DNA of 64,000 nucleotides from Escherichia phage ime. Position numbers and translations under genes: made by a program. Each line of letters opens with the position of its first letter. Within the stretch, counting starts at the first letter, position 1. The stretch lies in the sequence record MN850576.1, one strand, 5' to 3'. Positions 15,575-28,482 of the stretch are shown piece after piece. The notes beneath the pieces are model-generated. The model did no database searches. It saw only the letters and a program-made list of their open reading frames with translations, and was not told the DNA's origin.

Positions 15575-16992
15575 TAAGTTCTTCTCTTTTCTTTTACCGA
15601 GTAATTCGGGTTTTCTGTTCTCTTCGGTTTGAAGGGGTATGGAGATACACCTGAGTGAACAGGGTGAACAACCGAACCATTGGCTATGGCATTAGCATGG
15701 CGAAGCGGACGGGTGACGAAAGAGGGGCCGGAGGACACCAGTCACTGCCATATGGTATATGGGTGATAACCTGAAGAGTCTGAATAAGTGTTTAAGTACC
15801 AGTCAGAGGAAAAGGTGAATGGTAGCCGAAGGGGGAGGGGGGTTTCTTGTATCTTTAATTTGTATATTATGTATACACTTGTAAACCAATCTCATCTGAA
15901 TCTGTTTACCACACAAAGCGGATAGAGACAAATATCACCTATTAAACTTGAATTATTTATAGAAAATACCACAACACCACTTAAGTCTTTGATTTTACAC
16001 ACAAATCCTACAGATATTCAACCTCCATATTTAACATACTTGTAACATATTCCATACTCTACCTGTCTGATCAATCTACCCAACCACATCCTTCATATTT
16101 TCCCTGTCTGTACCACCCCTGCCCCGCCGGGAGTCCCGTCATATCTGGCTTTCCAGTAAATAGCACACCCACAAATATCATTGCCTGAAGAGGGTTTCAT
16201 CCCATAATACATGCCTTACCTGAAGAGCGCTTCATACACCACGTAAATTTTTTAATTGACCTGCAATTTTCCCGTCATGACCCCCCCCCTGCCCCGCCGG
16301 AGAGGTTGGCTTTTCCCACACAGACCTGAAGAGTCAGCCAGAAATATCTGAACAGGTCCAGTTCTGCCTTGTCATGAGCCGTAGCGACTGGAGTGCTGCC
16401 AGGCGGACGGAATGGGAATACTTCTCATTCTTATAATAATTCTCAAATATCGAGGCAGTGAGGCAAATTAATAGGTGAGGCCGTTCACACAGTGGCACAA
16501 CATTTGCAATCTATTTTGTGAGGGTGAATGAGAATACCTATCATTGTGAGAACCTTTATCATTACGGGCAATTTAACATAATACCCATTATGCGCACCAC
16601 TGGCGATACATACAGGGATTGATACCATGAGTTACAGTTTACGCATATAACAATCATATTTCTTACTATTTGTGTGGGATATAGTTAGCAACCAATAGAT
16701 TAGATATTGACCTACAGACTTCCAACCGTCTAGACGTCTAAACGCCCACACACCAAGGGTTATACATACATTACTGAATGTAAACAGGGCCGCAAAAATG
16801 CTACCATACCAGTTTGTAAATTTTTCATGCAGCACTTGACAAAGAGGAGAAAAACTTGTCTGACATAATGTGACCTAACTGACACAACATGACACTTTTA
16901 CACACCTATTAGTTTACACACTGGATTGTTTACATTCCTGATTGTTCACATGCTAACCATTTACATGATTGACTGTTTACACACCGATAATC

Positions 16993-19405: not shown

Positions 19406-19573
19406 CTTCAAGATAAATGTTACCCCACCCCATGGCAGATGTCAACGGTTTTTATAGTTCTTATATGACAGGCAGGCCCGGTGATTGTCTCCACCCGTCG
19501 CCAGGTGCCTGCCGTGAAACAAGTATAACAAAAAACAGGACCATTGCAAGCCCTGTTTTGTAGTTTATAAGGA

Positions 19574-22307: not shown

Positions 22308-22628
22308 TTAGTTTGAGAAAACATCGTTCACAATAGCGATCACAATGCCGCCCACCTTGTCACGGTCAACAATGCACAAATCACCATAAATCATGTGGTA
22401 GTCTGGATGATCTTTGACGGAATAGTCGATAAGTGTTTTCTTGTCATCCAGCTTACTAACTTCCATTCTCATAACGATATGAGAATCATCAAAGGCATTA
22501 TTCCGAAAAGTCATAACCTGACCGCCAGGGCACCCGGTGATTTCCACCTCCACGCCGTCTACGATCTGACCATCAAAGAAATAAAGATTATTAGCCTGGA
22601 TAAACATGATCATTACTCCTTTTTGCAC
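22308..22628 (-). CDS. hypothetical protein
   Basis: ORF track; start may be an internal Met. Confidence 0.5.
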   Translation of the reverse strand: MQKGVMIMFIQANNLYFFDGQIVDGVEVEITGCPGGQVMTFRNNAFDDSHIVMRMEVSKLDDKKTLIDYSVKDHPDYHMIYGDLCIVDRDKVGGIVIAIVNDVFSN

Positions 22629-27647: not shown

Positions 27648-27773
27648 TTTATGATAGAATCCACCTGCCGCCCCCGCCAGGTTAACCACCATTTTTTCGT
27701 ACTCTTCTTTATGTTCCCGCGCTTCTGTATCATTAATCACTACATTTCCCAGGTGAGTAGCATTACCTTTCAT
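27648..27773 (-). CDS. small protein (41 aa), below track cutoff
   Basis: ATG with GAAGAGGAGG RBS; hand-translated; overlaps GCCCCGCCAGG motif. Confidence 0.25.
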
Positions 27774-28030
27774 TTTTGTACCTCCTCTTCAATTGTTTAC
27801 CCTACAGCATGGGCCTACCAGGTTTGCAAGATTTCACCCTCTCCCACCTGGTCAGTTAGGTCCTGCCAGGCTGGCCCCGCCAGGTTGCAACGGTTAGCGC
27901 ATCAGGTTAGAAAAATTTTTTGAAAAGGTGTTGACAGCGGCCCCGCCAGGGGGCACAATATACCTATCGAAAGGACGGCAGGCACCGGTGACGGTGGAGA
28001 CAACCACCGGGGATGGGCGCTGCATAAAAT

Positions 28031-28053
28031 GAGAACGGTTATCATTATCATTT
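28031..28053. promoter_or_regulatory. Fur-box-like sequence A
   Basis: GAGAACGGTTATCATTATCATTT; about 15/19 match to GATAATGATAATCATTATC by eye. Confidence 0.3.
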
Positions 28054-28165
28054 AAAAATTTATGCAAAAAATCCTTGCCTTCTTTGTCCTGTGTGATACT
28101 ATAATAACAAGCCGGGGCAACAGGGGCCGGGAGACAATCACCGGGCCTGCCCGTTATTCTGCAAA

Positions 28166-28184
28166 CGAGAATGATTATCATTCA
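28166..28184. promoter_or_regulatory. Fur-box-like palindrome B
   Basis: GAGAATGATTATCATTC; core AATGATTATCATT versus consensus AATGATAATCATT. Confidence 0.35.
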
Positions 28185-28300
28185 AAATTCTAAATGAGAA
28201 CTCCTCGCATTTAATAAATTTAATTAGCATGCTAATTACCCTCCGTAACAATTTCCTATAAAACAGTATCCCATAAAATATTCCCATATAGAAATTTTAA

Positions 28301-28482
28301 AAATCCATTTCTGAAAACGAAAAATCGATTTCGTCCCCAAAAATTTCAGGTCGAGAGCTGGAACGATTTCCAGAAAATCCGATTCAGAAAACGAAAAACA
28401 GATCGAGTACTTGGAAATTTATCGAGAAAAATTTTCAGAAAATTCAATCTTTGAAACGAAAAACAGATCGAGTACTTGGAAA
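28301..28482. repeat. degenerate tandem iterons (~65-75 bp period), AT-rich
   Basis: GAAAACGAAAAACAGATCGAGTACTTGGAAA twice (28385/28451) plus variant at 28311; AAATCCATTT motif recurs to 28760. Confidence 0.5.

Follow-up and report, generated by a model that had tools for sequence, protein, structure and literature searches.

RyhB and PrrF are short non-coding RNA genes coupled to Fur boxes, and prrF1 and prrF2 form a tandem duplicate arrangement. Here, we describe a non-coding unit that invites comparison with them in Escherichia phage ime, an rV5-like Vequintavirus and virulent coliphage, of which we analysed a stretch of 64,000 nucleotides (nt) (sequence record MN850576.1; this whole stretch is called the window, and all positions follow its numbering). 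The unit, hereafter the module, consists of a short GC-rich hairpin behind a host-type promoter; it is present in three copies in the window, two of which (modules 1 and 2) have Fur-type boxes at their end and stand in tandem, as do prrF1 and prrF2. The main differences are that the box covers the promoter in RyhB and PrrF, whereas it follows the putative RNA in the modules, where no Rho-independent terminator or U-tail is called, and that the modules have no Rfam match and no Escherichia coli homologue. A Fur-repressed small-RNA gene of the RyhB/PrrF type was thus rejected, owing to the downstream position of the box and the lack of a called terminator.

The PeSLs of T4-type phages are composite promoter-terminator cassettes (PMC2839356, PMC4122927). 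Like them, the modules are repeated cassettes of ~50-100 bp that associate an early sigma70 promoter with a stem-loop among small early genes. However, the stem-loop of a PeSL precedes the promoter and runs with the genes, whereas the module starts with its promoter and two of the three copies are antisense; furthermore, the module keeps its loop sequence from one subfamily to another and comes with a Fur operator. The reversed order of promoter and stem-loop, and the antisense orientation of modules 1 and 2, led us to reject a T4-type PeSL as well.

The third system to be compared is the T5 'Repeat Region 3', or injection-stop (iss) region, a large gene-free region where a GC-rich hairpin, AATTCTCA, a perfect Fur box, more boxes and lineage-specific direct repeats are found. 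It differs from the module locus by its DnaA boxes, its location in the terminal repeat and its hairpin sequence, which is unrelated save for the ATTCTnCA-box junction. The comparative paper on Repeat Region 3 described palindromes of unknown function and did not name Fur (bioRxiv 10.1101/866236). In the T5-like phage chee24 (locus L307, positions 2060-2620), at least three further Fur boxes, each 0-1 mismatches from the consensus, come after the perfect one, beside paired DnaA boxes and nine repeats of GTGCGAATCCGACA, and the same region occurs in loci L048, L099, L102, L121, L131 and L133.

Fur boxes have so far been discussed for the cargo genes of temperate phages, of which Shiga toxin 1 is an example, and we found none described for the core control regions of virulent phages. 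A literature search for Fur boxes in the present phages, or for their transcriptomes, returned nothing relevant, the sole relevant co-mention with a coliphage being the Fur box of sitABCD, a cargo of lambdoid prophages (PMC6969025); the element goes unmentioned in the paper on the rV5 genome (PMC3606486). Within this limited literature, Fur-operator arrays with an attached hairpin look undescribed in virulent phages.

The promoters, hairpins and boxes of the three modules are as follows (mismatches are counted against the Fur-box consensus AATGAKAATNATTMTCATT).

27931-27959, plus strand: promoter of module 1 (TTGACA, 17 bp, CACAAT), with an A/T tract upstream; promoter scan score 10/12.
27978-28023, plus strand: hairpin of module 1, with GGAGACAACCACC (27996-28008) as apical stem and loop.
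28028-28052, no strand: Fur-box cluster A, the overlapping 19-mers AATGAGAACGGTTATCATT and AACGGTTATCATTATCATT, 6 bp apart, at 28028-28046 (2 mismatches) and 28034-28052 (3 mismatches).
28075-28105, plus strand: promoter of module 2, read from the sequence, with a perfect -10 TATAAT (28100-28105) and a weak -35 TTGCCT (28075-28080).
28106-28163, plus strand: module 2, a ~55-nt hairpin with an outer stem, an inner CCGG/CCGG stem, the loop GAGACAATCA and the ATTCTGCA tail.
28164-28182, no strand: Fur box B, AACGAGAATGATTATCATT, 1 mismatch.
28193-28211, no strand: degenerate third Fur-like box, AATGAGAACTCCTCGCATT, weak, 4 mismatches.
19459-19517, minus strand: module 3, the same hairpin with a perfect outer stem GGCAGGC/GCCTGCC, co-directional with the neighbouring genes and without a Fur box.
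19522-19549, minus strand: promoter of module 3 (TTGCAA, 16 bp, TATACT, extended -10 TG), from the promoter scan.

Several lines of evidence bear on the identity of the boxes. First, scanning the window with AATGAKAATNATTMTCATT returned five Fur-like sites where 0.31 were expected, and none of 100 shuffled sequences reached five. A first-pass annotation of this DNA, made from the sequence alone, had placed Fur-box-like strings after both tandem modules; they are indeed present, with 28028-28046, 28034-28052 and 28164-28182 as better bounds. Second, the phage boxes share the 19-bp inverted repeat of the Fur operator (9-1-9, with the 7-1-7 core TGAnAAT-N-ATTnTCA). Only 2 of 19 positions separate box B from the ryhB operator of E. 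coli, AATGAGAATGATTATTATT, and the orthologues of box B are perfect palindromes in PVP-SE1, GAP31, KNP2 and ESCO13 (the string that follows the module of Salmonella phage PVP-SE1 is AATGAGAATGATTCTCATT). The 6-bp offset of cluster A matches the spacing of real Fur site clusters in E. coli, where overlapping sites also lie 6 bp apart (PMC2189734). Third, as a positive control, AATGAKAATNATTMTCATT was searched at ≤3 mismatches in 54 kb of E. coli K-12 DNA surrounding genes well known to be under Fur control. The matches fell only in Fur-controlled promoter regions, namely ryhB (1 mismatch), fecI (2), and fhuA, cirA, fecA, fepD-entS and fepB-entC (3 each), with no false match in these 54 kb; the fepA-fes operator needs 4 mismatches, and proven E. 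coli operators span 1-4. Fourth, a scan for the exact palindrome in one genome per bacterial species found more than 120 loci in many phyla. Among the 145 open reading frames (ORFs) starting at ≤350 bp from it, the commonest Pfam families were Plug/TonB receptor and iron ABC binding (8 each), and further families were ZnuA and FUR (6 each), FeoA, FeoB and ECF sigma (4 each) and FTR1 (3); judging from these neighbours, the palindrome marks the Fur regulon in bacterial genomes. At the sequence level, the K-12 control and the bacterial loci beside Fur-regulon genes thus strongly support the proposal that modules 1 and 2 are followed by genuine Fur-operator sequences, whose match to the consensus equals that of the best host operators tested (e.g. 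ryhB and fecI). The phage boxes differ from typical E. coli Fur operators in their setting: the latter cover the -35 and -10 elements, whereas the phage box lies downstream of a conserved promoter, is set in related phages in tandem arrays with a ~29-bp period, and belongs to a virulent phage with no iron gene near the locus.

Two more Fur-like boxes, with 2 mismatches each and 116 bp apart, were noticed in the window at 16411-16429 and 16527-16545, i.e. in the gene-poor ~14.9-17.9 kb region, where ~3 kb lack long ORFs and the rightward and leftward gene blocks converge. The DNA around them is conserved only within Vequintavirus, and Klebsiella phage contigs have boxes at a syntenic distance (L107, positions 1088 and 1612). 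Furthermore, in many unrelated viral contigs of IMG/VR a perfect Fur palindrome stands right after a TTGACA-N17-TAnAAT promoter and a GGCGCC motif, over the transcription start, a place at which it would obstruct transcription (loci L046, L077, L097, L119, L122, L148, L154 and others), and loci L136, L127 and L161 bear Fur-box arrays with a 30-bp period. Because the palindrome directly follows a strong promoter in so many unrelated contigs, phages appear to use it as an operator, and Fur-operated promoters seem to be widespread in uncultivated phages.

The module was then compared across phages through a sensitive homology search with 27925-28205 as the query (a raw 16-mer scan of IMG/VR gave mostly chance matches), the layout being read from twelve related loci. 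The 1 kb around the locus shares 98.5% identity with Escherichia phage rV5_ev146 and 90-96% with ~100 further Vequintavirus genomes; outside the genus, the intergenic DNA can no longer be aligned except for module 2 and its box, which remain 72-89% identical. The layout comprises a sigma70 promoter, ~7 nt, a ~55-nt GC-rich segment (loop GAGACAAWCACC), ATTCTGCA, one to four Fur boxes ~29 bp apart and ~3 direct repeats. It is carried by Seunavirus, Mydovirus, Certrevirus, Phapecoctavirus, Justusliebigvirus, Serratia phage Kashira, W70 and Aeromonas phage PhAER-3, and it spans Vequintavirinae, Stephanstirmvirinae (phi92-like) and one Aeromonas phage; most records of these phages have nothing annotated at the element. 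The first box lies 6-8 nt after the hairpin in all lineages, and at the position of the degenerate third box of the window the relatives have their second to fourth boxes, with a period of ~29 bp. The Fur boxes are constant across phages of seven host genera (Escherichia, Salmonella, Klebsiella, Cronobacter, Pectobacterium, Serratia and Aeromonas), whereas the downstream direct repeats, which often contain GATC, vary with the phage lineage. Constant boxes and lineage-specific repeats are what would be expected if the former were read by a conserved host protein and the latter by a phage protein.

Modules 1 and 2 occupy a ~730-bp gap between a 46-amino-acid gene that ends at 27773 and the next leftward ORFs beyond 28510, and this gap (~700-900 bp) is gene-free in each genus examined. 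As the first-pass annotation had stated, the surrounding genes run leftward, the locus lying inside a long block of small early genes at 17.9-55.4 kb. The genes adjoining the locus all belong to PHROGs without known function; none encodes an initiator or a terminase, and no tRNA or tmRNA gene was found in the window. This comparison also brought up 16-18 GenBank records that bear the name 'Campylobacter phage' (MG0656xx, host C. jejuni) and share 92-98% identity with this region of an E. coli phage; the hosts in that data set may have been mislabelled, or coliphages may have contaminated it.

The promoters preceding the hairpins are conserved in position rather than in sequence. That of module 1 is of the AAAA..TGTTGAC early type, like the Certrevirus early-promoter consensus AAAA(N3-4)TGTTGAC(N17-19)TATAAT (PMC7344957). 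Its TTGACA had been noticed on the plus strand in the first pass, and is found there, at 27931-27936 instead of 27929; the TATAAT reported for module 2 is exactly where it was said to be (28100-28105). The promoter of module 2 was not called by the promoter scan because its best -35, TTGCCT, sits 19 bp away from TATAAT. Its orthologues read TTGATC-16-TATTAT, TTGCAA-17-TATATT and TTGACG-17-CATAAT, at an equal distance from the hairpin, and a further lineage has TTGCTT-16-TATTCT. Thus, while the sequence diverges, the -10 hexamers (TATAAT, TATTAT, TATATT, TATTCT, CATAAT) retain A2 and T6 in all lineages, and their distance from the stem is fixed. A GC-rich string, GCCCCGCCAGG (CCTGGCGGGGC on the other strand), recurs at 27667-27683, 27870-27886 and 27936-27952; it fills the -35/-10 spacer of several promoters here and in relatives (e.g. 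TTGCATCCTGGCGGGGA in PVP-SE1), which is unusual in an A/T-rich phage. Its likeness by eye to a CRISPR I-E repeat or to a tmRNA 3' end was dropped, since such strings are GC-rich promoter spacers recurring in relatives. A conserved direct repeat, TTTGTAAAGAnnTGTAAAGA, directly precedes the -35 of the module promoter (L040, 1437-1458, and the corresponding place in most other genera); it was seen in Seuna-, Mydo-, Certre- and phi92-like phages and not in the window, and it may be a regulator site.

The number of copies was established in two ways. The 16-mer GGAGACAAYCACCGGG has three exact matches in the window (27996 plus, 28130 plus and 19477 minus), in agreement with the core proposed in the first pass, GGAGACAA[CT]CACCGGG, which recurs exactly at 27996-28011 and 28130-28145 on the plus strand and at 19477-19492 on the minus strand. 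At ≤3 mismatches, this core has four matches against 0.62 expected, and none of 100 shuffles reached four; the fourth match, at 22533, was discarded, as no module surrounds it and the covariance model does not support it. This model was built from the homologues, module 1 not being among the sequences used, and it retrieved three copies only from the window: module 2 at 28106-28163 (plus; 66.4 bits, E = 1e-13), module 3 at 19459-19517 (minus; 44.7 bits) and, weakly, module 1 at 27984-28024 (plus; 15.5 bits). The inverted third copy, earlier placed at 19459-19503, is therefore a full module with its own minus-strand promoter and without a Fur box, whereas the earlier size of ~110 bp has to be corrected, the start-to-start distance being 134-136 bp (134 for the 16-mers and 136 for the A/T-rich strings; ~135). 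The module is not borrowed from E. coli, because no match was found in 5,426 E. coli genomes.

The spacer that holds module 3 is an ordinary intergenic one. In contigs of Klebsiella phages, the orthologue of this module (L302, 4991-5048; L107, 4326-4383) retains a weak box, and the module 3 promoter is homologous to that of the second module copy in Klebsiella phages. Just upstream, at 19532-19559 (minus), the -35 of this module 3 promoter is embedded in a terminator-like hairpin, AAAACAGGGCTTGCAATGGTCCTGTTTT, with a T-run after it; this composite of terminator and promoter, seen upstream of module 3 only, resembles a T4 PeSL.

In most other genera, the module is directly preceded by another conserved element, ~100 nt long and with its own sigma70 promoter, which we call 'RNA A' (L040, 1333-1434; L042, 1379-1480; L292, 1311-1412; and 17 others). 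It has an invariant CGCC/GGCG stem, a CCCC/GGGG pairing that becomes CCAA/TTGG in a variant type (pseudoknot-like), a hairpin pair that switches between GC and AU in 9 of 20 sequences, and no Rfam match. 'RNA A' is absent from the window, where module 1 stands in its place; for this reason, the tandem arrangement would be a duplication or replacement specific to Vequintavirus, and module 1 looks like a duplicate that replaced the different conserved RNA of the other genera.

Turning to RNA structure, the homologues fold singly into an outer stem ATRGCGGG/CCCGYYAT, an asymmetric internal loop and a short inner stem, with GAGACAAWCA at the tip. The outer stem is 82-85% paired (85% on a plain MAFFT alignment of 24 distinct sequences). 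Three of its pairs have changes on both sides; AU and GC are exchanged at columns 5-51 in eight sequences, and GC and AU at columns 8-48 in three. With these 24 sequences, the covariation score (0.210) exceeds that of the shuffles (0.156), none of 500 reaching it, and that of all slid controls. In the loop and the 3' strand, it is mainly the sequence that is conserved. As to the individual copies, module 1 has a minimum free energy of -24.1 kcal/mol (z = -4.18; none of 200 shuffles as good) and module 3 a moderate one of -20.5 kcal/mol (z = -2.16). A hairpin structure is consequently plausible, with moderate support. Concerning the strand, the non-Watson-Crick cells of the outer stem include 25 G-U pairs that can form only on the plus strand, versus 6 only on the minus strand. 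Together with the position of the promoter and the compensatory changes of the outer stem, this ratio points to an RNA on the plus strand, antisense to the early genes. Rfam gave no hit over the whole window at the gathering threshold and, for the locus and five relatives at an E-value threshold, none to the modules at E≤5; the sole match at the locus, to Lst_thermometer (E = 0.19) in the repeat region, is due to chance.

From these data, we propose, tentatively, that the modules are copies of a non-coding transcription unit, gated by Fur, in the early region of the phage, a reading that we prefer to any other and hold with somewhat less than even confidence. A host sigma70 promoter would fire rightward, against the surrounding leftward early genes, to produce a short GC-rich RNA folding into a ~55-nt hairpin with GAGACAAYCACC at its tip, and one or more high-affinity Fur operators would stand 6-8 bases past this hairpin. 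When iron is plentiful, Fur-Fe2+ bound to the operators would stop RNA polymerase just past the hairpin, so that nothing longer than the short RNA would be produced. Under iron scarcity, Fur would dissociate, and transcription would run into the direct-repeat region, head-on into early leftward transcription. The phage may in this way sense or manipulate the iron state of its host. The DNA itself shows the modules with their promoters and Fur-operator sequences, the conservation of these across phage subfamilies and the spurious nature of the ORF annotated over modules 1 and 2; the production of the RNA, its origin from the plus strand, the binding of Fur, the action of bound Fur as a roadblock and the recognition of a partner by the loop are all predictions drawn from it.

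A number of observations weigh against this proposal. First, the boxes lie at about +54 to +87 from the predicted starts of the conserved plus-strand promoters, with no overlap of the -35 and -10 elements, and a Fur roadblock at +55 to +85 is unusual, Fur normally overlapping these elements. Second, module 3 has no Fur box in this genus, meaning that the hairpin can exist boxless. Third, the structure is not uniformly supported: module 2 alone folds no better than shuffles (z = -0.82); the covariation weakens in the larger model-guided alignment of 34 distinct sequences, where 7 of 500 shuffles reach it; RNAalifold found no pair, hence no consensus structure, on the model-guided alignment; and the inner stem is poorly supported, being 54-56% paired by column because its register shifts between lineages. 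Fourth, the scan found no intrinsic terminator after the hairpin. Fifth, a search of the window for targets complementary to the loop gave five further sites at 2 mismatches, i.e. eight in all against ~2.5 expected, which is no convincing enrichment. The plus-strand small RNA suggested in the first pass has indirect support, from the conserved promoter distance, the compensatory changes and the 25:6 wobble ratio; neither a terminator nor an RNAalifold consensus was found for it.

The alternative that survives best, though we regard it as unlikely, is that the clustered near-consensus operators are a decoy that titrates host Fur as the phage genome replicates, thereby de-repressing host iron uptake, nrdHIEF and RyhB to feed the iron-dependent enzymes of the phage; the promoter and hairpin would keep the region open or be unrelated. 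The phage boxes have 0-2 mismatches, with up to 4-5 boxes per locus at ~29 bp, when the best host operators have 1-4 mismatches, and they stand clear of the conserved promoters. Extra clusters occur 8-12 kb away in synteny (16411 and 16527 in the window; 1088 and 1612 in L107), arrays exist in the unrelated T5-like phages too, and multicopy Fur boxes do titrate Fur, as exploited in the Fur titration assay (FURTA). However, a decoy explains neither the conserved promoter nor the fixed 6-8 nt coupling of the first box to the hairpin in all lineages. Moreover, with thousands of Fur molecules in an E. coli cell, a handful of boxes on each genome would have an effect only late in infection, at a time when host genes are maybe no longer transcribed.

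Slightly less probable still is a DNA site acting in cis to initiate replication or to serve headful packaging. The rightward promoters would serve transcriptional activation or the formation of an R-loop by the G-rich RNA, the A/T-rich palindromes would be an unwinding or bending region with Fur as an architectural host factor, and the repeats would bind a phage initiator or terminase. The layout of tandem promoters followed by A/T-rich DNA recalls the T7 primary origin and T4 oriF/oriG, and the whole ~730-900 bp gap is gene-free in every genus. Three direct repeats adjoin the locus (28287-28482), with equivalents, many of them with GATC, in all relatives, and the hairpin, Fur boxes and repeats of T5-like phages sit at the terminal-repeat boundary. 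Conversely, the Vequintavirinae regions have no consistent DnaA boxes, no initiator or terminase gene is adjacent, module 3 lies in a plain intergenic spacer, and the GC-skew analysis of rV5 did not place an origin at this locus (PMC3606486). As for the repeats themselves, the three copies in the window are ~57 nt long, spaced by 65-74 bp, immediately to the right of the Fur boxes, and share the core GAAAACGAAAAACAGATCGAGTACTTGGAAA; the cores of other lineages are GATCGAG (Seuna-, Mydo- and Certrevirus), CTCAAGT (W70) and AAACTTTAAATTTTG (phi92-likes). These triple repeats are candidate sites for a phage initiator or terminase.

We consider it improbable that the box serves to repress a leftward promoter, the hairpin being a 5' leader and iron starvation switching on extra leftward early-gene transcription. 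The minus strand of module 2 does read TTGAAT (-35), an 18-bp spacer with the box, and CAGAAT (-10), as it does in PVP-SE1, GAP31, PcCB7V and Kashira, a geometry like that of ryhB, where the box overlaps the -10. Nevertheless, this -10 is degraded in whole clades (CTGAAT in Mydovirus, GAGAAC in PhAER-3 and CGGAAT in L301), and the -35 is missing in phi92-like phages, W70 and PhAER-3, which retain the hairpin and the box. Because essential positions are lost in clades that keep the module, a leftward promoter cannot be its core function; in addition, the scan did not call it and the wobble pairs favour the plus strand (25:6).

It is more improbable again that the palindromes bind a phage-encoded protein and resemble Fur boxes by coincidence. 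Palindromic operators are common in phage control regions, but the present sequence is the pan-bacterial Fur box found beside iron genes in many phyla; it is constant across the phages of seven host genera and the unrelated T5-like phages, while phage-specific repeats diverge, and none of the 103 ORFs of the window encodes a Fur-family protein. Last, the 95-amino-acid 'Phage protein' (27894-28181, minus strand) annotated over both modules in rV5_ev146, Gotham and others, of which the repeats would be protein repeats, is a spurious ORF and can hardly account for the element: it has no Shine-Dalgarno sequence, its frame is broken in a contig that is 92.7% identical (L027), the changes seen in close relatives replace amino acids in its translation, and other genera keep the element without the ORF, with indels of 1-5 nt. 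On the plus strand, a 43-amino-acid ORF (28062-28193) was also discarded, since it starts upstream of the promoter and its frame stops after nine codons in PVP-SE1.

More broadly, and with less confidence than we place in the Fur-gated transcription unit itself, it is conceivable that unrelated large virulent enterobacterial phages (rV5-like, phi92-like and T5-like) use host Fur through near-consensus operator arrays placed in untranslated control regions. They would either read the iron state of the cell, and thereby gate transcription that is early, antisense or close to the origin, or sequester Fur so as to reprogramme host iron metabolism; the T5 injection-stop palindromes would be Fur sites, and the hairpin RNA and 'RNA A' new phage RNA families. 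As a practical point, the spurious 'Phage protein' can be removed from many annotations. If the broader proposal is true, the T5 injection-stop palindromes, whose function has been open for decades, would receive an identity, and one or two unclassified structured RNAs would be added to the few phage-encoded regulatory RNAs. If Fur does bind, the development of therapeutic and gut coliphages (Vequintavirinae, phi92-like and T5-like) would depend on, or alter, the iron status of the host, a dependence that would be relevant in the iron-limited gut and at infection sites.

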